From a virus (Duplodnaviria; Heunggongvirae; Uroviricota; Caudoviricetes): a stretch of 64,000 nt of DNA. Of this stretch, positions 4,087 through 20,542 are shown piece after piece. The position numbers and the translations under genes are program-made. Each line of letters starts with the position of its first letter. Positions within the stretch are counted from its first letter, which is position 1. Under the pieces are notes generated by a model. That model was given only the letters and a program-made list of their open reading frames with translations. It did not search any database and was not told where the DNA came from. The stretch spans positions 1 through 64,000 of the IMG/VR virus record IMGVR_UViG_2724679539_000005, one strand, 5' to 3'.

Positions 4087-4604
4087 CCGTCCAGAAGAAG
4101 ACATTTTCACTGGCAGGTATGTCGCCAAAATCCAGCAATATGACGGCAAAGTCAGGCATTAATACAGCAGATACAAGCAAAGTTTATCATTTGCTGGTGG
4201 TCGGAACGGATGCCTTAACCATACCAGAAATCTCGGGCGATGATATTAGCATTGAGAAGGTCAGCGGCTATGCCAGAGAATTTCTGGTCGTAGATGGCTT
4301 TCTCTGCTCGTGTAGTGACTCCACAAAAACCTTCGTCCACGCGCGTGACGTTAACGAAATGAGCGCGATGTACTGTGCTTCTGGTTCTTCCAATAGTGAG
4401 TTTTCGGAGTCCATAAAAAAGAGCTTGCCGTTATGCGGCAACACGGTTTATGGTTATAAGGCACCTCATAAAACGGGTGCCGGGATTGGCGTCCTGAAAA
4501 TTCTGAAGGCGACATATGACGCGCCGAGCGTCTTTTTTTATGTCGTAGGTCTGACTCACCCATTTTTTGGGCGTTGGTGTATAATCCAGCGCCTTTGTCA
4601 ATCA

Positions 4605-4690
4605 ATGGTGGCTCAGGCGGGGGCTTCTTCGGAAGCGCCGGTATCCTTCAGAGCCGGTTACGCCAACCCTGTCTGGGCTACCACCAGCGA
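4605..4690 (+). ncRNA. C4/CI-like antisense RNA (P1 C4, P4 CI type), copy A
   Basis: GGGCTTCTTCGGAAGCGCCGG hairpin with UUCG loop and CCGGTTACGCCAACC shared exactly with copy B at 32687; loop CCTTCAGA is complementary to TCTGAAGG in the RBS of the ORF at 4742. Confidence 0.5.
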
Positions 4691-4741
4691 AATTGGCGTT
4701 TCCGGTGGTAGCGTAACCTGCTATCTGAAGGAGGCTGCCAC

Positions 4742-4936
4742 ATGCTGGCTACTACCCCTACCCAAAAACCGCAATTTATCTGGATTATCGCCGCAGTTCG
4801 CCGCGATTGCCCGACAATTACCGCCAAAATTCATCATATTGCTGCCGAGTCTGAACGCGATGCTCGCCGTTCTCTGGTGCGCGATCACGTCTGCTTTTTT
4901 GCTGGTCGTATCCGCATGGAGGTGGCACATGATTAA
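4742..4936 (+). CDS. Hypothetical small protein, first gene after the antisense RNA
   Basis: Strong SD GAAGGAGG before ATG; SD overlaps predicted antisense target. Confidence 0.45.
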   Translation: MLATTPTQKPQFIWIIAAVRRDCPTITAKIHHIAAESERDARRSLVRDHVCFFAGRIRMEVAHD

Positions 4937-5147
4937 AACCTACGATGTGCATATGGATCCCCTCGAACGCACAAGCCAGATCATCACACTGACAGAAGTG
5001 ATTAACGACATTCTGGTGAGCAACTCTCCCTCACGAGACGAAAGACTGAAGGCGTTACTCGCGATATTGGATCTCGCCGTTCGTGACGTTCATTTCCTGC
5101 TGGAAGGTGGCGAAATGCCAGGAAAAACGGGGGCAACCAATGAATAA
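4929..5147 (+). CDS. Hypothetical small protein (72 aa)
   Basis: Internal ATG with GGAGGTGG SD inside a dubious 355-aa ORF. Confidence 0.35.
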   Translation: MIKTYDVHMDPLERTSQIITLTEVINDILVSNSPSRDERLKALLAILDLAVRDVHFLLEGGEMPGKTGATNE

Positions 5148-5334
5148 CTCAATTAATACCCCTCGCCTTACGTCCGCACTTCAATTAATCGAGCAAGCAG
5201 CGGCTGCCCTGGTTGCTGTCAGTCTTTCGGCTGAAGAAATGGACGCTGCTGATGTCGTGGATGCGATTAAAGCGTGCTCATCTTTGGTTAACGATGCCCG
5301 TGCCGAGCTGGTAATTCTTGGGGGTGAAAAATGA
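5140..5334 (+). CDS. Hypothetical small protein
   Basis: ATG MNNSINTPRL overlapping upstream stop. Confidence 0.4.
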   Translation: MNNSINTPRLTSALQLIEQAAAALVAVSLSAEEMDAADVVDAIKACSSLVNDARAELVILGGEK

Positions 5335-5594
5335 ATATCAACTTAATTTATCGTCATCCGTGTGAGCTGGAAATTGAATCATTGCTGGGGCGTGAAGAGC
5401 CATATCCAGACACATTCACTCCCGCAGATTGCGCGACTGAACGGCTTACCAGAGCGCGCACAGGTCTGGTTCATGTGATGAATGAGATTGTTCCCTCGGT
5501 GGGAGGGGAACAGGCGACAGTAATCAATAGCTGGCTACAAAAAGTTACCTCCCTGATAGATATCGGTTTAATCGATGTGGAGAGTGCGAAATGA
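5331..5594 (+). CDS. Hypothetical protein
   Basis: Coupled ORF in the operon leading to primase. Confidence 0.4.
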   Translation: MNINLIYRHPCELEIESLLGREEPYPDTFTPADCATERLTRARTGLVHVMNEIVPSVGGEQATVINSWLQKVTSLIDIGLIDVESAK

Positions 5595-5812
5595 CCAACA
5601 TCCAGCTCATTGAAGCGCAATGTCGCATCGAACAGGTTCAGACTGTTTTAGGGTTCTGGCTTGAAGGGGCCAGCCCCAGCAACAGAGACAAGTTAATGAT
5701 TGGCGCGGTTATGTCACTGCTCAATGGCGTACCAGAAGCTATTCAGGAAGCGGACGAATTGTTGGGCAAATATGAGTTACAGAATCATTCAGGCGAGGCT
5801 AAACATGAATAA
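5591..5812 (+). CDS. Hypothetical protein
   Basis: Coupled ORF. Confidence 0.4.
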   Translation: MTNIQLIEAQCRIEQVQTVLGFWLEGASPSNRDKLMIGAVMSLLNGVPEAIQEADELLGKYELQNHSGEAKHE

Positions 5813-6407
5813 TTTCTTAATCTTCCATGCAGAAGCAACGCCTGACGGCGTAAACATCATGCACCGCAGCAACGATGGCATGACAGAACGCGTTGAAACC
5901 GTCTCATATATTGATGCCGTAAATCGTCTGGATGCCGGGGATTATGACGATAAACCAGATGAAGGCATGTTTATACATCTCGCTATTGCCAGTGGCGGCA
6001 ACCAGGGATATTTCGATTACACATCACAGCATCACGTGATTATGTGGCGCTGGCTGATAGCAACAGCATTCATCAATGAAATGAGAAAGGAAAACGGCAC
6101 CGTCAGCATTATTGATGACAGTGGCAATCATTCCGTGGTTTCTGTTTATTCCAATGGCATCGTCGCCATGCCGCTGTATCCAGTAGCAGAGCGCCTCGCT
6201 ATGGCAAACAACATTGAGGGCGCAATGATCGAGAAATATGGTGTTGATGTCGGAACAAATAATGCCATCATTTTTTACAGCAACATGTTCGATGTCGAAC
6301 AGGGAACACTCACTTCGTTTGGGCGAGAAGTGCTTGCCGATCTTCACAACAGCTTTATTGCCGAACTAAACGAAAACGGCATCCCAGAAGCACCAGTGAC
6401 GCACTAA
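5805..6407 (+). CDS. Hypothetical protein (200 aa)
   Basis: In-frame ATG MNNFLIFH overlapping upstream stop. Confidence 0.5.
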   Translation: MNNFLIFHAEATPDGVNIMHRSNDGMTERVETVSYIDAVNRLDAGDYDDKPDEGMFIHLAIASGGNQGYFDYTSQHHVIMWRWLIATAFINEMRKENGTVSIIDDSGNHSVVSVYSNGIVAMPLYPVAERLAMANNIEGAMIEKYGVDVGTNNAIIFYSNMFDVEQGTLTSFGREVLADLHNSFIAELNENGIPEAPVTH

Positions 6408-6419
6408 ACGGAGGCCAGA

Positions 6420-8771
6420 ATGCGAAACATTGATCTTATCCGTCAGGTTATCAGTGCGTCTGAAAACAACTGGCCTCATGTGCTGGGCTGCCTGAACATA
6501 AATGTCCCTGACTCTCCGCGCCGTCATGCTCCCTGCCCTGCATGTGGGGGCAAAGATCGATTCCGGTTCGACGACAACGGGCGCGGTAGCTTCATCTGTA
6601 ATCAGTGCGGCGCTGGTGATGGGCTGGATTTAATTAAACGCGTAAATAACTGCGACACAACAGAGGCGGCGCTTCTTGCCGCTGATGTTCTGGGTATTGA
6701 TTACCGGACAACGGAAACACCAGAAGCCACCAGCCAGAAACGGGAACAACTGGAAACCGAGCGCCAGCAACGCGAACAGGAGCGCCTGAAAAGGGCAGAG
6801 AAGGACGAACAACAAAGACGGGATACGTTTTCCCGTCAGTTTGATGACATGCGCAGAAAGGCTGTAAACGGCAAATCTGATTATCTGTTTGCGAAAGGGG
6901 TAGGTGATTTTACATTCCCTGTGTTGCCCGATGGATCTCTGTTGCTGGCGCTGGTGGATAAATCCGGCGCAGTCACAGCAGCACAGACTATTACCTCACA
7001 TGGTGAAAAAAGACTCCTGACAGGTTCAGCAAAGCGAGGGGCATATCACGCCATAAACGCACAGAAACGACCTCACAGCATCATAATTGCTGAGGGGGTG
7101 GCTACCGCCCTGTCGTGCCATTTAATTCGCCCTGACGCAATGACAGTGGCAGCAATCGACGCTGGCAACCTGTTGCCAGTAGCGGAAGTCATGCGCAGAA
7201 CATATCCACAGGCACAAATCATCATTGCCGCAGATAACGATCACCAGCAAGGAAACTCCGAAAGTGGAGGGATCAACACGGGGAAAGATGCCGCAGAGAG
7301 GGCCGCTATTTCCGTAGCTGGCTGGGTGTCTCTGCCACCGACTGACTATAAAGCCGACTGGAACGACTATCACCAACAACACGGGCTGGCGGCAGCCACA
7401 GCAGCATTTAAAGATTCGATGTACCAGCCACGGGGGAAAGGGGCGCAGGTGAAAAATCACAAACAGTCAGTCGGGGCGCTGAATGAGATCAGTTCTGGCG
7501 AGGTGTTAAGCGATGATGAAATTGCTGTCCTCGAAGAAATCAACCGGACGTTTACGCATGTCACCATCGGCGGGAAACACAAGGTGGTGTCGCTAAAGCC
7601 TTCTCAAACCGGCGGTGTATCGCACGTTTTCGAGGATTTATCACAATTTCAGCATTATTTTCATCATAAACCGAGAGTCGCCAGAAAGCTGGCGGGATCG
7701 GCGTGGCTGTCATGGAGTGGGAAGAACTACAAGCCAGGAGGCGTAGGATTTTATCCAGTACCAGACAAATGCCCTGACGATGTTTTTAATCTGTATGAGG
7801 GGCTGGCACTGGAACCAATTGAAGGAGATTGCACGGTATACCTTAATCACCTGTTGCAGGTTGTCTGTGCCGGTAATGAAGAGGCATACCAATATCTTAT
7901 CCAGTGGATGGCGCACATTATCCAAAAGCCTGATGAAAAACCGTCCGTGGCAATCGTGATGAAATCTGTCCCGGGCACAGGGAAAGGCACAACGGTTAAA
8001 CCGCTGCTGCAAATACTGGGGCAGTACGCCGCCCACATTAACGGGGCGGGACATATTTCAGGGCGCTTCAATTCAATACTTGCTAACAAGCTACTGGTAT
8101 TTGCTGACGAAGTGACGATCCACAAGCCGTCTGAAGCTGACAGACTTAAAGCGATTATTAGCGAACCGACGTTTAACCTTGAGCGCAAGGGAATTGATGC
8201 TGAACCAATGCCGAATTTTGCCCGGTTGATATTTGCCAGTAACAGCACACAGGTATTACAGGCAGGGATAAGAGAGCGCCGCTATCTCGTGCTTGAGCCA
8301 TCTCCTGAAAAAGCACAGAGCCGGGAGTATTTTGATCGGCTGTACAGTTGGCTTAATGATGGCGGTGCCGCAAAGTTGCTTTGGCATCTTAAAGGGGTGG
8401 ATCTCTCAGGTTTTGACCCTCAACGAGCGCCACAGACCGATGCCTTACGTGAAGAAATCTTGCTGGGGCTGTCTGGCGTTGAATTGTTTCTTTATGGCGA
8501 GCTAATCAATGAACCTCCGTTTAATGGCGAAGTCCGTTTGTTTGCAAAGGATATGGTTAGTCGATTTGTAGCGTGGTCGCTTGAGCGTGGGGAAAAGCTT
8601 AAAGAACCAGCTGCCAGATCACTACTGGGTAAATCACTTGCACAAATGGGGCTGGTGAAGCATGGAAGACCAGACCGAGGGAATGGCGTGTTCTACGAAC
8701 TACCAGAGGTCGGAGTTCTACAGGCTGCGTTTGCCCGTCTGATCGGTATGGGGGGTTATGATGTTTTTTAA
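6420..8771 (+). CDS. P4 alpha-type primase/helicase
   Basis: N-terminal zinc-binding CPACGG..CNQCG, primase region, P-loop VPGTGKGT (D5/P4 alpha helicase type). Confidence 0.85.
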   Translation: MRNIDLIRQVISASENNWPHVLGCLNINVPDSPRRHAPCPACGGKDRFRFDDNGRGSFICNQCGAGDGLDLIKRVNNCDTTEAALLAADVLGIDYRTTETPEATSQKREQLETERQQREQERLKRAEKDEQQRRDTFSRQFDDMRRKAVNGKSDYLFAKGVGDFTFPVLPDGSLLLALVDKSGAVTAAQTITSHGEKRLLTGSAKRGAYHAINAQKRPHSIIIAEGVATALSCHLIRPDAMTVAAIDAGNLLPVAEVMRRTYPQAQIIIAADNDHQQGNSESGGINTGKDAAERAAISVAGWVSLPPTDYKADWNDYHQQHGLAAATAAFKDSMYQPRGKGAQVKNHKQSVGALNEISSGEVLSDDEIAVLEEINRTFTHVTIGGKHKVVSLKPSQTGGVSHVFEDLSQFQHYFHHKPRVARKLAGSAWLSWSGKNYKPGGVGFYPVPDKCPDDVFNLYEGLALEPIEGDCTVYLNHLLQVVCAGNEEAYQYLIQWMAHIIQKPDEKPSVAIVMKSVPGTGKGTTVKPLLQILGQYAAHINGAGHISGRFNSILANKLLVFADEVTIHKPSEADRLKAIISEPTFNLERKGIDAEPMPNFARLIFASNSTQVLQAGIRERRYLVLEPSPEKAQSREYFDRLYSWLNDGGAAKLLWHLKGVDLSGFDPQRAPQTDALREEILLGLSGVELFLYGELINEPPFNGEVRLFAKDMVSRFVAWSLERGEKLKEPAARSLLGKSLAQMGLVKHGRPDRGNGVFYELPEVGVLQAAFARLIGMGGYDVF

Positions 8772-8800
8772 TATAGTCTTTTTACAAGAAGATCGTTTTT

Positions 8801-8906
8801 ACCTGTACCACCTATACCACTTTTCTAATTCAGCATTAAAAACAATGCGTTATAGTGGTACAGGTCAATATCTTACCTATACCAGACCTGTACCACCTAT
8901 ACCATT
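8801..8906. repeat. Iteron cluster 1 (CCTGTACCACCTATACCA / GGTACAGGT units)
   Basis: Three or more direct/inverted copies immediately downstream of the primase gene. Confidence 0.5.
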
Positions 8907-8947
8907 AACAAACGCATTTCTTCTGGCTGGCTGAGAGGGAACAACCA

Positions 8948-9178
8948 ATGATGAGCACACCATTTTACAAAGTGCGCCAGTTAGCTTCTTCCTCTGGCTG
9001 GCAGCTACGGTTTGAGGGGCGTTCAGACTGGCTACCCATTGCGGCATGGGCGAATGTTGAAATGTGTATTGACGGCGATACCGTTGAAATCATTATTCCC
9101 TGCGTGGCAAGTCGGGACGGCTGTATAGAGCCAACAGATATGGCAGCAGAAATCAGAGAGGTAAAACATGAACAATAA
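8948..9178 (+). CDS. Hypothetical protein
   Basis: 76-aa ORF. Confidence 0.4.
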   Translation: MMSTPFYKVRQLASSSGWQLRFEGRSDWLPIAAWANVEMCIDGDTVEIIIPCVASRDGCIEPTDMAAEIREVKHEQ

Positions 9179-9905
9179 CTATTGCATACTGCAGGGAATG
9201 ACCAGAACGGAGCGCGAAGAATTAAAAAGTTTCGCTACACAGTGCGGGAATGCTGGCGACATCCAAAGTCTGGAACGCACTTTAATTATGATTGCGCACT
9301 GGATGCGCCAGGGGCAAAGAGTTTCATTTACTGAATATGCCAGCCAGTGGACAGAGGCACAGCGCGAACGGAGCGACGGTAATCACTCAACACCCGAAAT
9401 GGCGAAGCAATGGCCTTTCAGTGGTAAAAGCTGTATCAGTCCCGGTGGTTCAGATTATTACCCTGCTGGTGTGGGAGATGAGCCATGTTGTGACGAGACT
9501 GAAATCCGCCACGCAGTGACAGTAATTACCGCTGAATACCCACAATTTAACCTTGACGGACTGGCGCTCCACAACCGGAATGCGGACTGGGAAAACCCGC
9601 TTGATAACCCGTCATTTATCGTGTCGGCGAAAAGCTGCCTGAGATGGATCAGAGACAACGGGATGAGTAATGCCCAGATTGAGAGCTTCCCGCAGGATAA
9701 CCCCACATCTGACACGTTGAAGCATGAAGTGGAGCGATATAACCAGATAAACCACCAGCACAGTGATCACCCGCACTATATCCCCAACGGAGCATTTATT
9801 GCGGCGATGGTGGCAAGCGGCTACAAGGTTAAGCCAGCGGGAAGAATGAACGCATTTTTCAATATTTCAAAAAAGGGATTATGTGCTGCTATGGGTAAAA
9901 ATTAA
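9168..9905 (+). CDS. Hypothetical protein (245 aa)
   Basis: ORF flanked by the two iteron clusters. Confidence 0.5.
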   Translation: MNNNYCILQGMTRTEREELKSFATQCGNAGDIQSLERTLIMIAHWMRQGQRVSFTEYASQWTEAQRERSDGNHSTPEMAKQWPFSGKSCISPGGSDYYPAGVGDEPCCDETEIRHAVTVITAEYPQFNLDGLALHNRNADWENPLDNPSFIVSAKSCLRWIRDNGMSNAQIESFPQDNPTSDTLKHEVERYNQINHQHSDHPHYIPNGAFIAAMVASGYKVKPAGRMNAFFNISKKGLCAAMGKN

Positions 9906-9911
9906 ATAAAT

Positions 9912-10014
9912 GGTACAGGTCTGTACAGGTGGGGAGAGGTCATTTTTACCCACCTGTACCACCTGCAGGCCGCGCCACACAAGGGTTTGTGACATGGTGG
10001 TACAGGTGGTACAG
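9912..10014. repeat. Iteron cluster 2 (GGTACAGGT / ACCTGTACC units)
   Basis: Several direct and inverted copies of the same motif as cluster 1. Confidence 0.5.
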
Positions 10015-10381
10015 CAAAAACAGCGATTTTCTTTATAAGGTATGTTTTGCTCATCTGGCAGACGGAGGTATTCGCTGCGGTTTGGCACATAGCCCAGAAC
10101 AGCAAAGAGTTTTACGAGACTTTTGTAAAATCCAGTGTACAAGGGCGTGACGTTTTTGAAGGTGAGCACTACGAAATTTTTGTAGTTCAAAAAATAGCCT
10201 CTGAGATGTTGTTATGCCTGTTCAGCAAACCATCCGCATAGCTGATCGCGAATCAAATTACCAATGGAGCCAGAAGCAAGGGAAGAACTGGAAAGCGCCT
10301 GCCGTGAAGAGTAATGCGACTCCATAAATATAGTTTTTAGAGTCCATAAAAAAACTGTCAAAACCTGACATACAGAACGAT

Positions 10382-10412
10382 GCCACCAGCTACTGAACGG
10401 TGGCATTTTTTT
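10382..10412 (+). terminator. Rho-independent terminator
   Basis: GCCACC..GGTGGC hairpin followed by T7 run. Confidence 0.45.
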
Positions 10413-10507
10413 GTGCTATTTGTTTCATATTTTGCAATCACAATGATGAATGTTGCGTTTTATGAAACTATAATGACTGTTGTTTTATACAGTTCTAAGG
10501 GGGCGTT

Positions 10508-10681
10508 ATGGCTATTTCAGTAAAGCCAGTATTGATAAGTGAGAAGCAAATGGAAGCGATAAAGAAAATTCAGGAGGAGCAGCGTAAAAAATCAGAGGTA
10601 GGAGTTGCGCCAACGATCCACGAAATTGCTCGGGGATTAATGGATAAGGCGCTGGCTTACACTTTAACTGGACGTGGGTAA
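10508..10681 (+). CDS. Small protein (57 aa), possibly YlcI/YnfO-like prophage protein
   Basis: ATG with AAGGGGG SD; product MAISVKPVLISEKQMEAIKKIQEEQRKK; not in supplied ORF track (under 60 aa). Confidence 0.35.
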   Translation: MAISVKPVLISEKQMEAIKKIQEEQRKKSEVGVAPTIHEIARGLMDKALAYTLTGRG

Positions 10682-10685
10682 ATTT

Positions 10686-12029
10686 ATGGCTACGTGGCAA
10701 CAGGGTATTAATTCTGGTGGTTTTCTGGCTGGCATCGGTGCGCAAAATGAGAATGCGCCAAAGGCAAGCGACATTAACGCAACGCTTGGTCTGATCCGCG
10801 AAAACAATGAACTGGCTCGCTCAGGTGCAAATAACGTTGCTCTGACAGGTCTTCGTGGTCTGGCTGGAGTTGCTGACATTTATAAGCAGCAGCAACAGCA
10901 GGAACGTAAAGCGGCATTCCAGAAAGGTTATGCAGATGCTTATGCGTCCGGTGACAGGGAGCAGATGCGTAATCTTATTACAGCATTCCCAGAAGAGTTT
11001 GAGGAAGTCCGTAAAGGGATGAGTTATGTCGATGATGCTCAAAGGGATGATTATGGCAATCTGGCGCTCAAAGCACAGGTAGCCTCATCGCTTGGTCAGG
11101 GCGCATTTGGCAGGTTCATGATGGATAATGAGCAGGAGATGCGTCGTTTAGGTATCCCTCCAGAAACTATTGCTGAAATGCAGGTTAATGACCCGCAGGG
11201 CTTCCAGCATTTCGCAGGTAATCTGGCGCTGTTTTCTCTCGGTCATGAGAAGTATTTCGATATCAAAGATCAAATGGAAGGTCGTCGACTTGAGCAAGGG
11301 CGACTGGATGAAAGTATGCGTCAGGCTGACATGGAGAACGCGAGAGGATGGGCAAATATCCAGAACGCTCAACTAGACAGGGCTCAGCGAGCACAAATTC
11401 ACTCAGATGAGATGGGATTGAAGCTAATGGAGCTGGGGCAAAAAGGTAAGCCGTCAGCAGACTTAATTAAGGGATTAAATTCTGACATTACCAATTTTGG
11501 CAAAAATTATAACTCTGTCAGAGCGGCGGCAAACTCTCTGCAAGCCCTTAGCAAGGTAAATACTGGCGCTGCCCAACTTGGGATTATCTTCAACTACATG
11601 AAATCTCTTGACCCGCAGTCAGTCGTTCGTGAAGGCGAACAGGTTCAGGTAATGCGGTCTGATGGCATATGGGGACAAATCAAAGGATACATAGACCAGC
11701 TTAATGCTGGAAACGGCCTGTCGCAGGAGGCAAAGGATAACATTGTTAACGCCGCAAAAATCAACGCCAATGCTATGGGGCAGCAGTTTAACCAGCAGGT
11801 TGACGAGTATCTCGATACATATGGAGAAACTATTCCTCAGGGGCTAAGAAAAAGCCTTGAAAGAAGGAAAGCGAAGCTATTTGACGATGTTTCCGGGCAG
11901 CCTACATCACAGGCTGGCACTGGACAGGCAAAAGCGGCAACCGGAGGAATATCAGAAGGCGCAACGGCAACCAACCCTAAAACTGGTCAGAAAATCATTT
12001 ACAGGAACGGAAAATGGCAGCAAATGTAA
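10686..12029 (+). CDS. Hypothetical protein (about 450 aa), Gln/Ala/Asn-rich
   Basis: Long ORF; alternative GTG start at 10674. Confidence 0.6.
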   Translation: MATWQQGINSGGFLAGIGAQNENAPKASDINATLGLIRENNELARSGANNVALTGLRGLAGVADIYKQQQQQERKAAFQKGYADAYASGDREQMRNLITAFPEEFEEVRKGMSYVDDAQRDDYGNLALKAQVASSLGQGAFGRFMMDNEQEMRRLGIPPETIAEMQVNDPQGFQHFAGNLALFSLGHEKYFDIKDQMEGRRLEQGRLDESMRQADMENARGWANIQNAQLDRAQRAQIHSDEMGLKLMELGQKGKPSADLIKGLNSDITNFGKNYNSVRAAANSLQALSKVNTGAAQLGIIFNYMKSLDPQSVVREGEQVQVMRSDGIWGQIKGYIDQLNAGNGLSQEAKDNIVNAAKINANAMGQQFNQQVDEYLDTYGETIPQGLRKSLERRKAKLFDDVSGQPTSQAGTGQAKAATGGISEGATATNPKTGQKIIYRNGKWQQM

Positions 12030-14131
12030 TCTTACCGGAAGGTTTTGTGCTCGATGAACAACCTGATAACTCACAGTTTCCTGATAGTTCACAGCTTCCT
12101 GATGGTTTTGTGCTTGATGCCCAACCAGAACAGCAGCAATCACCTTTGGTTTCACCAGAGGAAAATTCCAGACAGGAAAATGTTGTTAATAATGCTAACG
12201 GTTTCGACCGTTTTATGTATGGCGTTCTCAGTGGATTGATGGATGTTGGTAAAGGTGTTGGCCTGTTTCAGGATATGACACCAGAAGAGCAAGCCGCAAT
12301 TCAGTCTCTACAGCAGAAGTTAGCGGCAAAACCATCAACCGCACAAGATGTTGGTGAGTTCGTTGGACAAGCAGCGCCATTTGTTAGTGGTGGTGGGATT
12401 ATTTCTCAGGTTCCCAAAGGGGCGGCAAGACTGGCTGCCGCCGCAGGGCTTGGTGCTGGAGAAGGGGCTATTGTAGCCAATGGAACAAATAGCGATGTTG
12501 CTTCCGGCGCTGCTATTGGCGCTGTGGCTGGCCCTGTAGCCGAACTTGCTGGCCCTGCAATTAATAAAATAGCTGGGAAATTAACCAAGAAGAATGTTTC
12601 TTCGATTCCAGATATTGAGGGGATTACTCCTGCCGAAGAGAAAATTCGTAAGTTATCTGCACAAGGCAACCCAAATCTTGCCTCTTCGCTTGAAGGGCTA
12701 GATCTAAAACCTCAGAAAGAAATTGTTGAGGCTGCAAATAGGCTTCATGTTGATTCAGTTCTTCCTTCTCATTTATCAGGAAATGAGCAATACCAAGCTG
12801 TAGAGCAAGCCCTAAAGTCACGGACAGGATCAGCGTTAAAAGCTCAAGAAGATAAAGCAATAAGCGAATTAGCCTCTAGTGCTGGCAAGATAATCGATGA
12901 TGTTGCTGGTGCGCCAGATGCGTTAGCTATGAGCGAAAAATATATTTATCAGATAAATAGTAGAATGGAAGCACTAAAAAACCGTAGTGATCAGTTATAT
13001 AAACGTGTTGATTCCGCTCTATCACCAAGAACAAAAGTCGAAGCAAATAACACAAGCACTATGCTGGAAAAAATCGCTGATGATTTAGGAGGGTGGGATA
13101 ATCTTGACCCAATAGAAAAGCGAGTTTTTACAGCAATAAACCCCGGACCAGATAGCATCCTAACGTATGCAAATTTAAACAGGCAAAGGCGTTTAGTTGG
13201 TGATGCCCTAAATAAAAAGCAGGGGCCATACAAAGATGCTGATAAAGAAACGCTATCAAGACTATATGGAGCTTTAGCTGAAGACCAAAAATCTGTCTTA
13301 TCCAATACTGGATACTTGCGAGATTTCGAAGTCGCACAACGCCTTGTAGCTATGAGAAAAAACTTAGAAAGGCAAATGGTAAATCTTCGCGGGAAAACAC
13401 TTAATGGGGATATAGCGTATAAAGTAACGAATTCTCTTCAATCTATGGCAAAAGGTGATGCGAGAGGGTTTCGTGAGATTATGCAAAATACTCCATCAAG
13501 AACATTGCGAAGGGAGCTAGTAGGAACAGCATTAAGAGATATGCTTTCCTCTGGGAAGCGTGGGGCCGACTTTAATCCATCTGGCTTTGCAGATTGGTGG
13601 CAAAACTTGCAACACAGTGGACAGCTAAAGACTTTGGCTGAACATTTGCCAAAAGAAACAATGAGCGGACTATATGATGTATACAAAGTTGCCAGAGCAA
13701 TAAAAAATGCTAAAGCGCATGAAATATCTACTGGTAAGCTGAATGAGTTTGTAAACAGATTTAATCGGGTAACAGCTCCATACGAACTAGCAGCAAAACA
13801 CATTCAAAAAATAGGCACGATGGTAGGCGCTCATTTTGGATCGCTTGGAGCCATTGCTGGGGCTGATATTGGAGCAAGATTGGCGAGTAAAGCTCGATTA
13901 GCTGGTGGAGCAGGGGCGGCTGATGCTGCGGATAAATTAATTGCCTCGCCAGCCTTCCAGAGCGCAGTAAAAAATCTACACGGAAAAGCGCCTGGGCACA
14001 TTGTTGATTCACGTATCAGGCGCTCCCCTCAATGGAAGAGTTTTTTTAACTCTCTTCCTGAACAGGAAAAACGGACCATCGCCAGACTGGGCATCATTAC
14101 TTGGCTATCTAATGATCCAGATAATGACTAG
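12014..14131 (+). CDS. Hypothetical protein (705 aa) with Ala/Gly-rich segments
   Basis: Start overlaps end of upstream gene (coupling). Confidence 0.65.
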   Translation: MAANVILPEGFVLDEQPDNSQFPDSSQLPDGFVLDAQPEQQQSPLVSPEENSRQENVVNNANGFDRFMYGVLSGLMDVGKGVGLFQDMTPEEQAAIQSLQQKLAAKPSTAQDVGEFVGQAAPFVSGGGIISQVPKGAARLAAAAGLGAGEGAIVANGTNSDVASGAAIGAVAGPVAELAGPAINKIAGKLTKKNVSSIPDIEGITPAEEKIRKLSAQGNPNLASSLEGLDLKPQKEIVEAANRLHVDSVLPSHLSGNEQYQAVEQALKSRTGSALKAQEDKAISELASSAGKIIDDVAGAPDALAMSEKYIYQINSRMEALKNRSDQLYKRVDSALSPRTKVEANNTSTMLEKIADDLGGWDNLDPIEKRVFTAINPGPDSILTYANLNRQRRLVGDALNKKQGPYKDADKETLSRLYGALAEDQKSVLSNTGYLRDFEVAQRLVAMRKNLERQMVNLRGKTLNGDIAYKVTNSLQSMAKGDARGFREIMQNTPSRTLRRELVGTALRDMLSSGKRGADFNPSGFADWWQNLQHSGQLKTLAEHLPKETMSGLYDVYKVARAIKNAKAHEISTGKLNEFVNRFNRVTAPYELAAKHIQKIGTMVGAHFGSLGAIAGADIGARLASKARLAGGAGAADAADKLIASPAFQSAVKNLHGKAPGHIVDSRIRRSPQWKSFFNSLPEQEKRTIARLGIITWLSNDPDND

Positions 14132-14150
14132 TGAATGGCCACGGATGGCC

Positions 14151-14576
14151 TCAATCTTTATTCTTTGAAATAGAGTCATTGATCTTTTCGAAACACCAAT
14201 GAAATCCACAAAAGAGAGCTACACCAATATAACAATACAAAACTATCAACCACCTTTCAGTGTCCGAAGGGTAAAAAACATCAATTACATAAGCAACACC
14301 AATTGGTATTAATGCTAGTAATAACATCGACACAGGACGTACAAACTTCTGAACTATATCAATTTTATAGAACCACAAGGCGGTATGTTTAATGATATAA
14401 GTAAAGATGGCTGCGCCAATAATGGCAAAAAACACCATCGATAAAGTCGGGTATAACTTTGCGACAATTAAACCCAACAAAATAATTATAACTGCCTGCC
14501 CCCTCACACCAACCCTCCCTTTAGCTTTGTTTAGAATGGCAATCATCATATATCCAAGACATGGCATTTGGTACAT
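14151..14576 (-). CDS. Predicted multi-pass membrane protein (about 141 aa from internal Met; ORF extends to 14765)
   Basis: Three hydrophobic helices; convergent with the 705-aa gene. Confidence 0.4.
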   Translation of the reverse strand: MYQMPCLGYMMIAILNKAKGRVGVRGQAVIIILLGLIVAKLYPTLSMVFFAIIGAAIFTYIIKHTALWFYKIDIVQKFVRPVSMLLLALIPIGVAYVIDVFYPSDTERWLIVLYCYIGVALFCGFHWCFEKINDSISKNKD

Positions 14577-14699
14577 AGCTTGGGTCGGGATTTCAAATCC
14601 GCCCCCGTTGATGGGGTCGTTACAGTACGCGCATATCCGCTTTATGTGAAACAGGAAGATTTTTCTGATATCACTGCCACAGCAAAACACCAATTTCGT

Positions 14700-14715
14700 G
14701 ACCAGTACGCGCGCG
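14700..14715. repeat. 16-bp motif GACMAGTACGCRCRCG, copy 1 (others at 14753, 14984, 17701)
   Basis: Four near-identical copies within 3 kb; copies 1 and 2 flank the palindrome CAGTTGCAAAATTTTTTGCAACTG. Confidence 0.5.
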
Positions 14716-15338
14716 AGGGGTATCAGTTGCAAAATTTTTTGCAACTGCGTCCGACCAGTACGCACACGATGGCGGGGGATACCATGAAACTGTTCTCTAC
14801 ACGAGACAGAGTGGTGGTGATGTGTTGATTATCGGCGTATATGCGCACAGGACGCGCTATGACGATGTTTTATGCGGGTACACCAATCACATGTATCTGG
14901 TGTGATAAATCGCGTTACATGACCTCTCATGTTGTGCTGGTGGTTATCACGACGTTCTGAATCTGGCTTTTGTCTGATATTTTGCGACAAGTACGCGCGC
15001 GTAACATCGAAATTATCGGATGGCGTATGTTGCTGGCAAGATAAAGTCGGCGTAATACAAAGGCGTTACTTGATAGCAGCAAGATTACAACAATGGTTGT
15101 TGAATTTGAGCGATGTAAGGAATTGATTTAGGGAGGCGCTGATGGCTAAAAAGTTCCACTACCAGCGGATGAATGCGCCAGCGATGGCCGTTTGGTAGTA
15201 AAAGAGGAGCCATTCCTCAATCAGTTGAATACATTATGCCAACTAAATGGGTGGGGGCACTGTGTGGGTATTCAGCGGTGACGGTATTTTTTAAGCCAAG
15301 GACTATCCGTAGCAGGGGGACTCATTTTGAAATATTTA

Positions 15339-15776
15339 TCATATGTAACTTATTATTTTAGATAAAGATTTCCAGTTAAAGAAAAAAGTTATCATTGATA
15401 TAATCAAATATGCCCCTGCGAGTAGCAGGGCATAATAATCCAGAGGCAGATTGCTGACAACAGGGGCAAACATCGAGATCATTGCTAATAGGCAGGCTGT
15501 GATCAGCGTAGTTCCTGTATCAAAAAGCCCCTCAATAATGCCTTTTAGTACTCCGTTACTTTTTAGAGCGCCTACAATTCCCTTTGAACTATCAAAGCTA
15601 CTTAGCATGGTGACTGATGCCAAAACAAAACCAAAGAGAACTCCAGAAATAGTTGAAAGAGCACCAGCAGCCGAAATGACAGCATTGTGATCTAGGTCGT
15701 GTAAAAAATGGGCACCAGCAATAGCCATAGCTAGAGCAAACAATGACTTGGCAGCAAACAATTTCCGAGAACTCAT
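15339..15776 (-). CDS. Small membrane protein (145 aa, four predicted TM helices)
   Basis: AGGAA SD 12 nt after upstream stop; hydrophobic segments throughout. Confidence 0.6.
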   Translation of the reverse strand: MSSRKLFAAKSLFALAMAIAGAHFLHDLDHNAVISAAGALSTISGVLFGFVLASVTMLSSFDSSKGIVGALKSNGVLKGIIEGLFDTGTTLITACLLAMISMFAPVVSNLPLDYYALLLAGAYLIISMITFFFNWKSLSKIISYI

Positions 15777-15788
15777 AATGTATTCCTG

Positions 15789-16874
15789 TTACGTTTGACT
15801 AACCAAATAGTACTGGGTTAGATACCTAAGGTTGTCATTCTTTGCTTGTAGCATAGCATTTTTAACGTCAGTATCGGTCGGATACCCATCTGCTTGGATA
15901 GGCACCATCTTCTTTACCGTAAGAACTTCGTCTACAAGACTTTTCTTCTTTTTATCGCCCTGAGCAACAACATTTGCTTTCTCAAAAGTTAAACGACCAT
16001 CACCACCAGGGAACTTTTCTAGCATCTCCTTAAGGCTTTTTTTAACGTCATCCTCAAGCCATCCCTTTGCTTTTCTTTTTAATGGAGAATGTCCGCGTAA
16101 CGAAATAGTCAGGTGGCTTGAACTGGTGCCTCTGATCATCTCAATCATCTGATTCGCGAACATTCCATCGAGTTGATACTGTGCGGCATTGAAGTTTCTT
16201 GGGATGGCCACAGAAATCTCGCAGCTTCTTAGATTGGATCCAGTTTCGAGTAGTTCTTTGATGCTTTCTTCTTTCCAAATGGCTTCAAAAGAAACAGGGA
16301 CTCCGCGATCACTGGAGTTGAAAAGAAGGAAGGCTAAGTCACTATGGCGTGGACCTAAATGATTTAAAGACAATACTAGAATGTCTGTCTGAGGATAATA
16401 AATAAAGTATGTACGTTCTGAAAGAGTCTTTGCCCCGGCTAGAGGGATTTTCTCTTCCACCCACTCTTTATCTGTAATATATGCCAGTGTTGCGCTTTTT
16501 CTTCTTCGAGACATGAATCCGAAGTAGGAGCCATCCTCGGGTGAGATGTCTAGAAAATGAATTTTAAGTTCTCTTTCACCAAAGTCTGCATAGTGGGTCA
16601 TCTTGAAGTCTTTAGAACACCGATCATACAGATTTTTAAAGGCCTCTGCGGTTAACCCCTTGTTACTAGTGCGAATATTCTCAGAGCTTGTGTAAAAGCC
16701 CACCCTTACAGATTTCAAACTTTGATCTTTTGGTGCCACAGTCATTTGAGCTCCATTGTACTCTGCGATAGTTTTTGCACACCTTGAAATCAAAATCTCC
16801 ATGTCAGTCACGAGAAAATAACTATGGATGAAACCCATCAAAGGCATTGAATACAGGTGGCTTTTGAGAATCAT
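15789..16874 (-). CDS. Hypothetical protein (361 aa), first gene of two-gene AT-rich operon
   Basis: Long AT-rich ORF, no recognisable motif. Confidence 0.65.
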   Translation of the reverse strand: MILKSHLYSMPLMGFIHSYFLVTDMEILISRCAKTIAEYNGAQMTVAPKDQSLKSVRVGFYTSSENIRTSNKGLTAEAFKNLYDRCSKDFKMTHYADFGERELKIHFLDISPEDGSYFGFMSRRRKSATLAYITDKEWVEEKIPLAGAKTLSERTYFIYYPQTDILVLSLNHLGPRHSDLAFLLFNSSDRGVPVSFEAIWKEESIKELLETGSNLRSCEISVAIPRNFNAAQYQLDGMFANQMIEMIRGTSSSHLTISLRGHSPLKRKAKGWLEDDVKKSLKEMLEKFPGGDGRLTFEKANVVAQGDKKKKSLVDEVLTVKKMVPIQADGYPTDTDVKNAMLQAKNDNLRYLTQYYLVSQT

Positions 16875-17225
16875 CCTAACCTGGTGACGGTGGTTCGCAT
16901 ATCCTGATGGATGATCAGTGATTAATCAATGCGCCAAGCAGATGTGTCTATGTGTTTGTTAATCATTGCATGACAGTAGATCGACATGGGAGATCACGTT
17001 ATATAGTTGAATTGTTAGGATATCCATGCACCGATCAACTGACTAGGCTGATGTGCTTTTTAGCAGGTGCCATATAGTAGTTAGGCGGTTCTGTGAAATG
17101 ATTACTGTTCCAGCATAACTGCGGCATAAAGCGGTGCTATATAAGCTATTTGCTGGCGGATTTAGTCTTCACCGTTAATATATGTAGTGACTATTTGACA
17201 GAGTGTTAGTTCACGGACACTTTTT

Positions 17226-17335
17226 GTTGGTTCAAAATGAGTTGATGTTGGTTCAATATTTTAGAAAAAACACAATAAAAACAACGCTCTTTACAAATTG
17301 AACCAACTGAACCAACTGAACCAACTGAACCAACA
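17226..17335. repeat. GAACCAAC repeat array: two inverted copies plus four tandem 9-bp copies (GAACCAACT)
   Basis: Tandem array at 17300-17335 and GTTGGTTC copies at 17226 and 17247, upstream of the PerC-like gene. Confidence 0.6.
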
Positions 17336-17370
17336 CCTTTTTGCTTATCTATATAATCTGAGAGGCAGAA

Positions 17371-17652
17371 ATGATAAGGGACAGGAAAGCTGAAGAGCTG
17401 GAGTCAAAAGGGCTATACCGGAGAGCTGCCGCACGATGGATGGAAGTCATGCTGTTATGCACCGAGGACGATGATCGGGAATGGATAAAGCGCCGCCGTG
17501 AAACGTGTCTGGAGAACGTGAAGCGCCCGCCCGTGAAGGTTGAGGAATTTGGCGACCTGCATAAAGCTGTTACCGAAACGCAACACCGCATGGGGATAGC
17601 GCAACCGAACGGTAACGCCTTCCGGTTAAATGGCGGCAAGAGGCAAAGGTAG
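17371..17652 (+). CDS. PerC-family transcriptional activator-like protein
   Basis: 93 aa with LESKGLYRRAAARWMEVM motif resembling PerC/Pch. Confidence 0.55.
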   Translation: MIRDRKAEELESKGLYRRAAARWMEVMLLCTEDDDREWIKRRRETCLENVKRPPVKVEEFGDLHKAVTETQHRMGIAQPNGNAFRLNGGKRQR

Positions 17653-17949
17653 ACCACCAGAGGGAAATCATCCTCTGGCTGGCGGTTTCTGGTATTTCGG
17701 GACAAGTACGCGCACGCGTAGCACCCAATCGGTGAGGAAATAGCGGCGACCTGAATGGTCAAAATCACAACGCAGCTATCCCCGTAAGCATCGCTTAACG
17801 GAATAGCAGTAACCTGAATCCAGTGGGGAGGGGGTAGTCAAATCTCTACAGGCCTGACTATCCGGGACTGCCCGCCCCATCGTTTTTTTATACCCGCGAA
17901 AAATGAAATTTAATCCGGGCGTGTTTCATCCTTCCAGAGGGTATGACGT

Positions 17950-18135
17950 ATGGCACCACGCGAAATAGCCTTATTGACCATCGCCAAACTTGAGCACGGA
18001 GGCCACCAGCTTACACAGGCAGATCAACGGGAGATAGAACGATCAGTTAATGCCGATATAGCCCGGCGCGACAGGTTCCGCGAAATGATGCGAGCACCTG
18101 CCTACCAGTGGAAGAAGCCAGCGCCGCGCAGGTAG
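17950..18135 (+). CDS. Hypothetical small protein
   Basis: 61-aa ORF. Confidence 0.3.
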   Translation: MAPREIALLTIAKLEHGGHQLTQADQREIERSVNADIARRDRFREMMRAPAYQWKKPAPRR

Positions 18136-18255
18136 ATATGGGATTATTCCACATGTAACTTATGCGTATTAAGCAAATTTCCTTTATTCACCTTTACAGA
18201 ATTGTGAGTACGTCAGTATCGTTATCCTTCCGATTCGCATTTATTCAGGATTTGC

Positions 18256-18798
18256 ATGTACCAGCTAAAGATAACCATCCGAGACAGCAAACCACCTATA
18301 TGGCGGCGTGTGCTGGTTCCAGAGCAAATCCCCTTTAGTAAACTTCATGCCGTGATCCAGTTAGCTTTTGGCTGGAATGACGAACACCTGTATATGTTCG
18401 AGAAAGGGCGTAAAGGTGATCCAGGTAGCGAGTATCGCGTATGGGGTGAGGATGAAAGCATGGGTAACGCGGCAATCACGCCACTATGGGCGGCGCTCCA
18501 GAATGAGGGTGACAAGCTGGTTTACACGTATGACTTTGGCGACTGGTGGGATTGCGTCATTGTGCTGGAGAAGCAAACACACGATACGAGTAATCAGCCC
18601 ATTAGCTGCCTGCGTGGGAAAGGCACCACCCCGGCGGAAAACTCAGGCGGCTTGCATGGTTACAATGAATTGCTATTACAGGCCAGAGAGTCTGATAATC
18701 CTGAGCAGGCCGAGATCCACAATTTCCTGATGCTGGATATTGAACGCCGGGTTTACGACCTGAGCCGCATCAACGACAGATTGCAGGCTATTAACTGA
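18256..18798 (+). CDS. pRiA4b ORF-3-like family protein
   Basis: YDFGDWWDCVIVLEK motif and N-terminal pattern recalled for this family. Confidence 0.45.
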   Translation: MYQLKITIRDSKPPIWRRVLVPEQIPFSKLHAVIQLAFGWNDEHLYMFEKGRKGDPGSEYRVWGEDESMGNAAITPLWAALQNEGDKLVYTYDFGDWWDCVIVLEKQTHDTSNQPISCLRGKGTTPAENSGGLHGYNELLLQARESDNPEQAEIHNFLMLDIERRVYDLSRINDRLQAIN

Positions 18799-19150
18799 CC
18801 CGCATGTATTCACCTGATATTGCGTTATCAGCGCCGCCAGTATCGCGCATAACAGCACAATGACCGGGTAAACCGTAACGCACGACCGTTGCGTTAGTCT
18901 CACCGCCGCGCCGTATCTGGCGCGATTCATACACTGTCACCCGCTCAAGCAGTCCACCAGCAACCATGCTTTCCAGTGTGCGCCGGGTTGATTCGAGCTG
19001 GTGACGCTTATCGAACGACACCATGCCATGAAGCAGGTAGGCCACACCCGACACATCGAACGGCGGCGCACCAATCTCACCAGTCACCCATTCGAGGTTA
19101 TCCGGTTCAAAGTAGCTAAGTATCTCTTTTTTGCGGCTGGTCATTCTCAT
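18791..19150 (-). CDS. Hypothetical protein
   Basis: 119-aa ORF. Confidence 0.35.
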   Translation of the reverse strand: MRMTSRKKEILSYFEPDNLEWVTGEIGAPPFDVSGVAYLLHGMVSFDKRHQLESTRRTLESMVAGGLLERVTVYESRQIRRGGETNATVVRYGLPGHCAVMRDTGGADNAISGEYMRVS

Positions 19151-19362
19151 GGCTGGCTGATTCCTTATTGTGGGATAGCACTATCATACAATAAGTGGGT
19201 TAAAGGGAGAGCGTTACCGCCTGATATGCTGTATGAATAACAACCAAATTTCAGGGGCGGAAAAAGATATGGGGGTACTTTTGGGGGTATCTATAAAAAA
19301 TGAACAATAAAAAAGGCAACAAAAACAAAGCTTATCGCCTATGTGTATTGTTCCTATTATCG

Positions 19363-19381: not shown

Positions 19382-20542
19382 TTACCTCGCATTTAAGTAA
19401 ACTACGTTCTCCTCTTGTGCCGTATTTGTGCCATTGCGACTTATAATCGCATCGATTTTGCTCGCGTGCTCGGTGAGATGCCCAGCTGAAAGGTGGGCGT
19501 ATCTTTGAACCATTTCGAGAGTTTCCCATCCTCCCATCTCTTTAAGTGCAAGAAGAGAGACACCGGACTGAACCAGCCAGCTTGCCCAGGTATGCCTCAG
19601 GTCATGGAAGCGGAAGTTGCTAATGCCTGCCCGCTTTAACGCTCCCTTCCATGCCTTGTTGCTGTCGGTTCTCATCTTCCTTACCGCTGCTGTTTTTGTT
19701 CCGTCGCTTCGGTAGGCAGGTTTGGTGTGGACAAATACCCATCTCTTATGGAGCCCCTGCTGTTTTCTTAATATCTGGCATGCGGTTTCGTTAAGAGGAA
19801 CTCCGATCGCATTGCCAGCTTTTGTTTCATCAGGGTGCATCCATGCCATTTTCTTATCCAGATCGACCTGTGACCACTCAAGGTCTGTAACGTTGGAACG
19901 ACGAAGGCCTGTCGTGATTGCAAACATGACCACAGGGAAGAAATGAGGAGCAATTTCTGCAAACAGGCGCTTCGATTCCTCCTCTGTAAGCCATCTGATT
20001 CGTCCATTCTTAACGCGTGGTGTTGATATTTTGGGCGCCCTGTCAAGCCATCCCCATTCAACAGCCATATTGAGAATAGCGCGAAGTATTGCCAGATGCC
20101 GCGTCTTCGTTCCTTTGCTTGCCAGCTTTGGTTTATACTCCGGCACTGGCTTGCCAAGCCGCAAACACCTATCCCGGCTCATCTCCCAGTTCAGGCGATG
20201 GCGGCGGTTTTCCATCCCGTCTACCGCCTCCATTATTTTTTCTGTTGTTATGTCAGAGAGAATGGTTTCTCTGAAGTGCAACATCCAGAACGATATAATG
20301 CTCTTGTCATCATCAATGGACTTCTTATCCGATTTCTCACGCAGCCACCGTATGCAGGCTTCCTTGAATAGCTTTTTCGGTGATTCCCCGAGATTTTTTA
20401 CTCTCCACGCTTCTGCTTTCAGACGATCGTGAAGTTCTTGCGCTTGCCTCTTGTCCGATGTTTCAAGAGAGCGTCTAACTCTTGATCCATCTGGCGCGAC
20501 GAAATCGCAGTGCCATGTGCCACCGCGCAGTTTGATTGACAT
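19382..20542 (-). CDS. int: Phage integrase (tyrosine recombinase, lambda family)
   Basis: 386 aa; catalytic HDLRHTWAS and LEMVQRYAHL motifs. Confidence 0.9.
   Translation of the reverse strand: MSIKLRGGTWHCDFVAPDGSRVRRSLETSDKRQAQELHDRLKAEAWRVKNLGESPKKLFKEACIRWLREKSDKKSIDDDKSIISFWMLHFRETILSDITTEKIMEAVDGMENRRHRLNWEMSRDRCLRLGKPVPEYKPKLASKGTKTRHLAILRAILNMAVEWGWLDRAPKISTPRVKNGRIRWLTEEESKRLFAEIAPHFFPVVMFAITTGLRRSNVTDLEWSQVDLDKKMAWMHPDETKAGNAIGVPLNETACQILRKQQGLHKRWVFVHTKPAYRSDGTKTAAVRKMRTDSNKAWKGALKRAGISNFRFHDLRHTWASWLVQSGVSLLALKEMGGWETLEMVQRYAHLSAGHLTEHASKIDAIISRNGTNTAQEENVVYLNAR

Follow-up and report, generated by a model that had tools for sequence, protein, structure and literature searches.

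Predicted P22-type ejection genes form a recurrent module in an EcCIMP1-family phage satellite of Escherichia coli

We analysed a block of four genes in a 64,000-nucleotide stretch of Escherichia coli DNA (positions 1 to 64,000 of IMG/VR record IMGVR_UViG_2724679539_000005, hereafter the window). The two long genes of this block are predicted to encode a gp20/gp16 pair of DNA-ejection proteins of the type used by phage P22, and the element that carries them is, on its gene content, a phage satellite: a phage-inducible chromosomal island (PICI) of the family of EcCIMP1. From the sequence evidence assembled below, we hold both the identity of the genes and their island context with very high confidence. 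The pair is preceded by a conserved leader and a small open reading frame (ORF), is followed by a convergent gene for a membrane protein, and recurs in this arrangement or in a longer one across many E. coli genomes. We propose, with moderate confidence only, that such satellites load a matched gp20/gp16 pair into particles built by a helper phage and carry an entry-exclusion gene beside it.

The two long genes are predicted to encode P22-type ejection proteins

An initial annotation, made from the letters and a list of ORFs, had reported a 57-aa ORF, two long ORFs of 451 and 705 aa and a convergent ORF, and all four are present where it had placed them (Table 1). The first long ORF is real, but the 451-aa reading depends on a GTG start. 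The true start is almost certainly the ATG at 10686, which gives 447 aa, because this is the start annotated by RefSeq in a genome identical over the block and because the gp20 proteins of P22, of the E. coli phage Kapi1 and of the island then share the opening MATWQQGINSGG. The gp20-type gene lies directly upstream of the 705-aa gene and overlaps it by 16 nt, which bears out the coupling that had been proposed; the Kapi1 pair has the same overlap. The compositional remarks of the initial annotation also held: the gp20-like protein, described as rich in Gln, Ala and Asn, has 11.4% A, 10.7% G, 9.8% Q and 7.2% N, and the 705-aa protein has A+G-rich stretches at residues ~121–200 and ~601–640.

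The 447-aa protein matches the Pfam family PF16928 (Inj_translocase) with an E-value of 2.5e-73 (246.8 bits, for a cutoff of 29.7), its residues 16–223 covering model positions 1–208 of 218, and it matches phrog_917 at 4e-132 in a PHROG profile search. Its identity to Kapi1 gp20 is 75% and is distributed as a mosaic, with residues 1–70 and 200–447 near-identical and residues 70–200 diverged. It is also 54% identical to P22 gp20 over residues 1–212. We assign it to the P22 gp20 family of ejection proteins on the strength of these alignments.

The assignment of the 705-aa protein relies on profiles. It matches phrog_6704 over its full length (1e-175) and phrog_770, a family of 'DNA transfer proteins', over residues 113–654 (4e-50). 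P22 gp16 is the best member of the latter profile, scoring 2e-266, and pairwise BLASTP of the 705-aa protein against P22 gp16 gives no match. Because P22 gp16 anchors phrog_770 and BLASTP is silent, we consider the 705-aa protein a remote homologue of gp16. Among phages, its Kapi1 counterpart is 41% identical overall (~95% in the first ~180 aa and ~30% in the remainder), and Sf101/APC_JM3.2 is 62% identical over residues 204–701. PF26808 was never reported by our own Pfam scans, even for relatives that bear it in precomputed annotations. The protein thus appears to be the ejection protein of the gp16 slot, predicted to form the membrane part of the conduit. The closest phage to the pair as a whole is Kapi1, a P22-like phage with the order gp14-gp7-gp20-gp16. 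Neither large protein has a relative in the PDB by sequence search, and neither has a signal peptide or strongly hydrophobic segments by hydropathy. Of the two guesses offered from composition, phage ejection or internal proteins and a large toxin, the family matches favour the first.

The block lies in an EcCIMP1-family satellite

The block is 100% identical to that of E. coli strain Ec1120. The first ~19.4 kb of the window, which hold it, match EcCIMP1 in gene content and in attachment (att) core; EcCIMP1 is the 19,963-bp PICI described from E. coli MP1 (Pick, Stadel & Raivio, ISME J 2025, PMC11773190). Its excision and circularisation require the P22-like phage Kapi1, which also transduces it. 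It needs alpA, and it gives added superinfection immunity against Kapi1 through a gene that is unmapped (PMC11773190). The two islands share an integration site at tRNA-Thr, between proA and yagU/pao, and the att core TCCTATTATC. They also share a succession of genes: integrase, AlpA, a hypothetical protein, AntA, DUF4222, Ash, primase, the leader with its small ORF, ejection genes, PerC and PRiA4_ORF3. In the window the left att copy and the tRNA fall beyond the edge, so the site was read from genomes identical over the block, such as Ec1120, in which the island adjoins tRNA-Thr (the thrW locus) and proA, as it does in MP1.

The islands differ in the parts that concern us most. EcCIMP1 has gp14-gp7-gp20 and, as third large protein, a 906-aa protein of a transglycosylase type, followed by a co-directional lipoprotein gene, whereas the window has gp20 and a 705-aa third protein of the Kapi1 type, followed by a convergent gene for a four-helix membrane protein. 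The primases are also distinct (DUF5906 in the window, TOPRIM-DUF927 in EcCIMP1), as are the iterons, and in the window a cargo gene, DUF6387, is also present after the integrase and ahead of alpA.

Neither island has capsid, tail or lysis genes. In the Pfam and PHROG scans of the island proteins of the window, the two ejection genes were the only virion-related ones, and the whole window has no other homologue of gp7, gp14, gp20, gp16 or SieA. The earlier remark that no structural genes accompany the block is therefore right for the island; the prophage that follows in tandem from 19362 is an unrelated myovirus. The initial annotation had also held that clear homology to ordinary virion proteins would mark the block as a decayed prophage fragment. 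The homology is clear, but the context is that of an apparently intact satellite in which the module is recurrent. On these grounds we classify the island as an EcCIMP1-family PICI, not as a decayed prophage or a toxin pair. A P4-like satellite was considered and rejected: integrase, AlpA and primase were found, and the Pfam and PHROG searches, in which not all small ORFs were scanned, gave no protein like Psu, Sid or Delta.

The module recurs in two layouts and exchanges genes with phages

It had been suggested that related elements be checked for the same block, and they do carry it. The block itself is at least 99% identical in 83–85 of 5,426 complete E. coli genomes. Searches specific to the junction after the leader found the layout of the window, in which gp20 follows the leader directly and only genes 20 and 16 are present, in 217 of these genomes, and a longer layout, in which the leader is followed by gp14 (14-7-20-16), in 258. 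Together the two layouts occur in ~475 of the 5,426 genomes, roughly 9%. The short layout is shared by the window and the island variant L005; EcCIMP1 and L006, the island of E. coli 2014C-3057, illustrate the long one, with a DUF2824 protein (the family of P22 gp14) after the leader, then P22_gp7 (PF25688, 6.6e-73), gp20 and a third large protein. There are at least three types of this third protein that cannot be aligned with one another, and each of them matches the gp16 profile. That of EcCIMP1, with its transglycosylase domain, is unlike the one of its helper Kapi1, which is of the window's type. One copy of the block is interrupted by IS1.

P22-like phages (P22, Kapi1 and Sf101, with the order 14-7-20-16 and then sieA) have homologous gp20 and gp16-slot proteins, and share with the islands a mosaic, highly variable gp20-gp16 pair and a convergent small membrane gene ~20 bp past gene 16. 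The island of the window differs from them in that genes 14, 7 and all other virion genes are absent. Its pair is found downstream of a satellite primase, and the leader and small ORF in front of the pair are specific to satellites and missing from these phages. The comparison of a true P22-like prophage with a PICI is telling in this respect. Gene 16 and the gene in the slot after it (2,517 nt) are 99.56% identical between the two, whereas the neighbouring 14-7-20 segment has only ~46% identity up to the final ~60 nt of gene 20, where the identity picks up again. These patterns indicate that the gp20/gp16 pair was acquired from P22-like phages (Lederbergvirus), and that exchange with them is recent or ongoing.

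Homologues of the leader ORF (57–87% identity) occur in E. coli, Salmonella, Serratia, Klebsiella, Raoultella and Erwinia, and led us to contexts beyond E. coli. In Serratia the leader ORF is followed by gp20, a 943-aa SLT/gp16 protein and a convergent small gene. Other lineages have delivery proteins of other kinds after it: a 108-aa protein and a full-length tape-measure protein (phrog_1107, E = 0) in Erwinia and in assembly L020; an SLT-bearing tape measure and a tail protein in Klebsiella; a protein like tape measures and injection transglycosylases and a TerS-like gene in Raoultella (L011 and L012); and T7 gp14-like and other internal virion proteins in the metagenomic lineage L021. The loci of the Erwinia and Klebsiella islands and of the two other lineages with tape measures or T7-type internal virion proteins straight after the leader ORF are 10001–13662 of L013, 7001–11011 of L020, 7001–9602 of L019 and 7001–14183 of L021. 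In every context sampled (a handful of lineages, conditioned on the presence of the leader ORF), this ORF stands after a satellite-type primase and before virion DNA-delivery genes, with no exception.

A conserved leader and a small ORF precede the pair

The ejection genes are preceded by a conserved segment of ~550 nt (95–100% identity across island variants), made up of a leader, a hairpin, a TATAAT box, a strong Shine-Dalgarno sequence and the small ORF. The leader (~265 nt) is conserved although the flanks of the variants differ on both sides. It has no family in Rfam, and a 37-codon ORF within it is interrupted by a stop codon in two variants. Its only similarity to phages is a weak one, over 40–100 nt, to antirepressor genes of Klebsiella and Stx phages. 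We considered whether the leader and terminator mimic a late promoter of the helper, or a site of Q-mediated antitermination, and rejected this on the blastn results and the lack of an Rfam family. It may act as a small RNA, in regulation of the genes behind it or as a signal for packaging.

The hairpin and T-run that the initial annotation had placed near 10382 are there, as an intrinsic-terminator-like structure whose stem is invariant across the island variants and whose loop varies at a single base (A, G or T). The TATAAT box has a poor -35 element and was not called by a simple promoter scan. Together with the AAGGGGG motif that follows, it may form the module's own promoter, possibly activator-dependent, and ribosome-binding site.

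The differences between variants of the 57-aa ORF are largely synonymous or conservative. The AlphaFold2 monomer of its product has an extended N-terminus and helices at residues 12–28 and 37–53 (pLDDT 74.6). A family of 14 homologues gave no Pfam match at E ≤ 10, and the protein had no sequence match in the PDB and no match with Foldseek. It is possibly a ribbon-helix-helix-like regulator: the modelled topology fits, and the libraries are silent. We also asked whether this ORF might derive from gene 7 or gene 14 as a remnant, and rejected the idea, as it has no similarity to either and the window has no gp7 or gp14 signal.

The convergent gene occupies the place of sieA

The convergent gene is AT-rich (35.6% GC), as reported, and its product has four hydrophobic segments by hydropathy, not three. 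It is separated from the stop codon of the 705-aa gene by 19 nt, close to the 20 bp given before. Its start had been put at 14576; it is most likely at 14546, because the homologues begin at that methionine. Relatives with 42–47% identity lie in the same position, convergent and ~20 bp past gene 16, in both P22-like prophages and PICIs. One of these prophages also has the coat gene and homologues of gp4, gp10, gp26, gp14, gp7, gp20 and gp16; in another, an Arc/Mnt/Ant region follows. The search of sequenced phages gave no match.

This is the place of sieA in P22, whose product acts in superinfection exclusion and was recently studied in detail (Leavitt et al., mBio 2024, PMC10883804). The window protein shares with SieA its position, orientation, small size and membrane location, and the spacing is also similar (19 nt past the gp16-slot gene, and 22 bp for P22 sieA). 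It differs in being a compact four-helix protein without SieA's long loop and in having no pairwise or profile similarity to it. We rejected the idea of a cryptic SieA of types A–C, given a BLASTP E-value of 2.9, an hhalign probability of 0.06% and the absence of the FxRYPxEAxxFNK motif, which is the conserved cytoplasmic motif of SieA (PMC10883804). Its relatives likewise have no match to phrog_7745.

Other variants of the island have other genes in this slot: a real sieA homologue, a signal-peptide protein or a lipoprotein. The sieA homologue is in L006 (19255–19869, 204 aa). It matches P22 SieA with E = 8e-8, matches phrog_7745 and carries an NRYPGEA version of the motif; every sieA gene examined in detail in 2024 lay in a P22-like prophage (PMC10883804). 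Because the variants carry different genes there, we suggest that the slot after gene 16 holds interchangeable envelope proteins. The convergent membrane gene is better explained, from its position and relatives, as a variable sieA-slot gene of P22-like phages, and the slot genes would be natural candidates for the superinfection immunity of EcCIMP1.

A model for the module and its alternatives

We propose that the block serves a phage satellite as its module for DNA delivery from the virion. Its gp20 would build the periplasmic part of the injection conduit, and its gp16-type protein the membrane part. Once a P22-like helper turns to lytic growth and the island is thereby induced, expression of the module would start from its own leader, the 57-aa protein first. 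Island gp20 and gp16 would then co-assemble with the gp7 of the helper, and aided by gp14, into procapsids built by the helper, so that particles with island DNA would inject it through a conduit chosen by the satellite, which could change their sensitivity to SieA-type exclusion in recipient cells. The membrane gene would probably be expressed in the quiescent island and exclude incoming P22-like phages at DNA entry.

The genetics of P22 makes such a role plausible. Sets of ejection proteins that are very divergent can still be built into working P22 virions; genes 20 and 16 have to match each other, whereas gene 7 tolerates exchange; a mismatched gp16 still assembles into particles but is non-functional; and the type of gp16 influences sensitivity to SieA (PMC10883804). 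Retention of exactly 20-16 therefore makes sense for an island that supplies a complete, self-compatible conduit and draws on the gp7 of its helper.

Several observations weigh against the model. Four of its steps are inferred: entry of the island proteins into virions, an advantage for the island, expression coupled to the helper, and the role of the membrane gene. No P22-like helper is in the window, where the tandem prophage is an unrelated myovirus. In EcCIMP1 the mismatch between the island's type of gp16 and that of its helper means that mixed particles might work poorly. Its transduction is inefficient, only 2 of 21 EcCIMP1 strains have a Kapi1-like prophage, and the authors, who likened EcCIMP1_017 to _019 to 'DNA transfer proteins' as well as to DUF2824, suggested a role in packaging (PMC11773190). 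Two types of SieA excluded most of the ejection-protein sets tried (PMC10883804), and with such breadth evasion by swapping these proteins is not guaranteed. A sensitive blastn search of the leader against P22-like phages, including their late-promoter regions, gave no similarity. Finally, the lineage of the window is clone-like, at least 99% identical throughout, and too uniform to measure selection.

The main rival is that the ejection proteins and tape measures of the islands are poison subunits, which mis-pair in the progeny of an infecting or induced phage so that normal-looking particles fail to inject, to the benefit of the bacterial population or of the satellite. In its favour, P22 with gene 16 or gene 20 alone from Sf6 forms no plaques even as Sf6 gp16 is assembled (PMC10883804), and PICIs encode assembly interference such as Tai (PMC11364771). 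The islands also carry defence cargo (Abi_2, RnlAB) beside the module, and the gp16 type of EcCIMP1 differs from that of its helper. The idea is weakened because the titre of Kapi1 after induction is not reduced by EcCIMP1 (PMC11773190) and because one mismatched gene would suffice, yet the islands keep 20 and 16 as a matched pair, or all of 14-7-20-16. Moreover, these are the particles in which the satellite itself has to travel. We regard it as unlikely.

A second alternative places the action in the resident cell, where gp20 and gp16 made by the quiescent island would lodge in the envelope and obstruct or misdirect the conduit of P22-like phages that arrive, a superinfection exclusion by mimicry in which the membrane protein may or may not take part. 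EcCIMP1 does raise the immunity of lysogens to Kapi1 (PMC11773190), most genes on the horizontally acquired elements of MP1 are reported to be expressed, with some of those of EcCIMP1 raised in Kapi1 lysogens (PMC12922286), and the module is always beside genes for envelope proteins. But proteins with neither signal peptides nor strongly hydrophobic segments, which the phage delivers by ejection from the virion, are ill suited to this role; the strong terminator and weak -35 element upstream argue against constitutive expression; and the full-length tape measures found in the same slot in other genera suit a role in the virion better. We consider such mimicry distinctly improbable.

The block could also be a neutral remnant, a fragment of a P22-like prophage captured by recombination and carried passively. 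Mosaicism, recent exchange with phages, the copy disrupted by IS1, clear homology to virion proteins and the absence here of genes 14 and 7 all agree with it. Against it, ~475 complete E. coli genomes carry intact ORFs after a conserved leader, in two layouts, Serratia shows the same architecture, and other genera fill the slot with analogous proteins of other phage types; the retained pair is also exactly the one that must stay matched in experiments (PMC10883804). The genome numbers, the conserved leader and the pattern across genera make a passive remnant very improbable. The initial idea of a large toxin, here taken as a secreted one, and of an immunity protein encoded by the convergent membrane gene has in its favour only the size and low-complexity composition of the proteins and the small membrane protein next to them, and can practically be set aside, given that Pfam, PADLOC and NCBIfam gave no toxin, secretion or defence-family match for the block, that both proteins fall firmly in ejection-protein families, and that the genes are arranged exactly as they are in P22-like phages.

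Other features of the island and the tandem prophage

Two sets of island genes look like cargo. The DUF6387 gene is missing from the otherwise near-identical Ec1120 island, and the same place holds a DUF6387 gene in one Serratia island and a different gene in another, so that it looks like a variable cargo slot. The two co-directional genes at the right of the block, encoding a 145-aa membrane protein and a 361-aa protein, sit where other variants carry Abi_2 or RnlA/RnlB and are a candidate two-gene defence cargo. PADLOC gave no match for the DUF6387 gene or for these two. Just past the replication genes, the window has iteron-like repeats GTACAGGTGG, a place taken by GTTGGTTCA repeats in variants whose primase is of the other type; both are probably primase-specific replication origins, to judge from this correspondence.

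The island is followed by a complete prophage, bounded by copies of the att core, which resembles SfV-type myoviruses in its genes and also has lambdoid early genes (bet and a replication protein). Its lambda-type head and contractile tail rule it out as the island's P22-like helper. A pair formed by the small RNA isrK and the C4 antisense RNA occurs twice in the window by Rfam, once in the Ash region of the island and once in the prophage, which suggests a shared antirepressor-control circuit and possible cross-talk of the two elements.

Table 1. Features of the window discussed in the text, with evidence or remarks.
Feature	Positions	Strand	Basis or remark
Conserved non-coding leader of the module	10107-10371	+	95-100% identity across island variants
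Intrinsic-terminator-like hairpin, then U7	10372-10415	+	-19.1 kcal/mol, z = -4.6
Conserved TATAAT with poor -35, candidate activator-dependent promoter	10469-10474	+	Read from sequence
Shine-Dalgarno AAGGGGG	10497-10503	+	Read from sequence; conserved in variants
Leader ORF, 57 aa	10508-10681	+	ORF list
First long ORF, maximal reading of 451 aa (GTG start)	10674-12029	+	ORF list
Predicted gp20-type ejection protein, 447 aa	10686-12029	+	Pfam, PHROG, Kapi1/P22 alignment
Predicted gp16-slot ejection protein, 705 aa	12014-14131	+	PHROG, Kapi1 alignment
Convergent membrane ORF, maximal reading	14151-14765	-	ORF list
Four-helix membrane protein in sieA position, 131 aa, candidate entry-exclusion moron	14151-14546	-	Hydropathy, homologue starts
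EcCIMP1-like PICI (~19.4 kb)	1-19361	+	Pfam, Rfam, att core
Integrase of the island	1-1215		Pfam
int-alpA RNA	1276-1343		Rfam
DUF6387 cargo gene, 293 aa	1358-2239		Pfam
AlpA	2437-2634		Pfam E = 9.8e-20
AntA	3078-3911		Pfam
Ash	4080-5147		Pfam
isrK and C4 RNAs within Ash region	4461-4688		Rfam
Primase (Zn-ribbon, Toprim, DUF5906)	6420-8771		Pfam
Iteron-like repeats GTACAGGTGG, both orientations	9911-10014	.	Just past replication genes
Two unknown genes, 145-aa membrane protein (phrog_8552) and 361-aa ORF (phrog_7651)	15339-16874	-	PHROG
PerC	17371-17652		Pfam
PRiA4_ORF3 protein	18256-18798		Pfam
Right att core TCCTATTATC	19352-19361		Published EcCIMP1 core found in window
Complete prophage in tandem with the island	19362-61147		Between TCCTATTATC copies at 19352 and 61138
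Prophage integrase	19382-20542	-	
Prophage eukaryote-type Ser/Thr protein kinase, early region	25169-26215	-	Pkinase E = 1.2e-46
isrK and C4 RNAs in tandem prophage	32570-32752		Rfam
Prophage GpA terminase	41913-44030		
Prophage lambda-family portal	44251-45762		
Prophage ClpP-capsid fusion	45524-47797		
Prophage tail sheath	50347-51891		
Prophage baseplate hub	55391-56542		
Prophage tail fibre	58293-60083		

Implications for phage satellites

We found no description of satellites encoding injection proteins in the open-access literature. The piracy modules of other satellites, namely CpmAB, Ccm and TerS of Staphylococcus aureus pathogenicity islands (SaPIs), Sid and Psu of P4, those of capsid-forming PICIs and TcaP of PICI-like elements (PLEs), act on capsid size, packaging specificity or whole capsids (see also the review PMC6893505). 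To our knowledge, none of them has been described as supplying the DNA-injection conduit. They resemble the block of the window in being satellite-borne homologues or modifiers of helper virion proteins, located downstream of replication genes. The Tai systems, too, are PICI-borne and act on virion components of P22-like and other phages, but they are small inhibitors of the tail needle gp26 or of the central tail fibre that block assembly, and not homologues of virion proteins (PMC11364771). The island family was published in 2025, with its ejection genes noted in passing; the comparative pattern of the module leads to a specific new hypothesis on their role.

The loading of a matched gp20/gp16 pair into helper particles may be one case of a broader strategy. 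We suggest, more tentatively than for the E. coli module itself, that the PICI family marked by the leader systematically encodes DNA-delivery proteins matched to the type of its helper (P22-type ejection proteins, T7-type internal virion proteins or siphovirus tape measures), often with an entry-exclusion gene, and so controls how and where its DNA is injected. If true, this would be a third kind of satellite piracy, beside the remodelling of capsids and the redirection of packaging. Satellites would then tune DNA entry, the step that decides which cells receive mobile DNA and the target of SieA-type proteins, and this would place them inside the arms race between injection and exclusion. The slot genes would supply candidates for the superinfection immunity of EcCIMP1, and amber mutants of Kapi1 or P22 combined with an island would make a simple genetic system for the assembly of the gp20-gp16 conduit. 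The variability of the ejection genes of P22-like phages, which is among the highest of all their genes, would, in turn, be explained by exchange with satellites and by selection within them.

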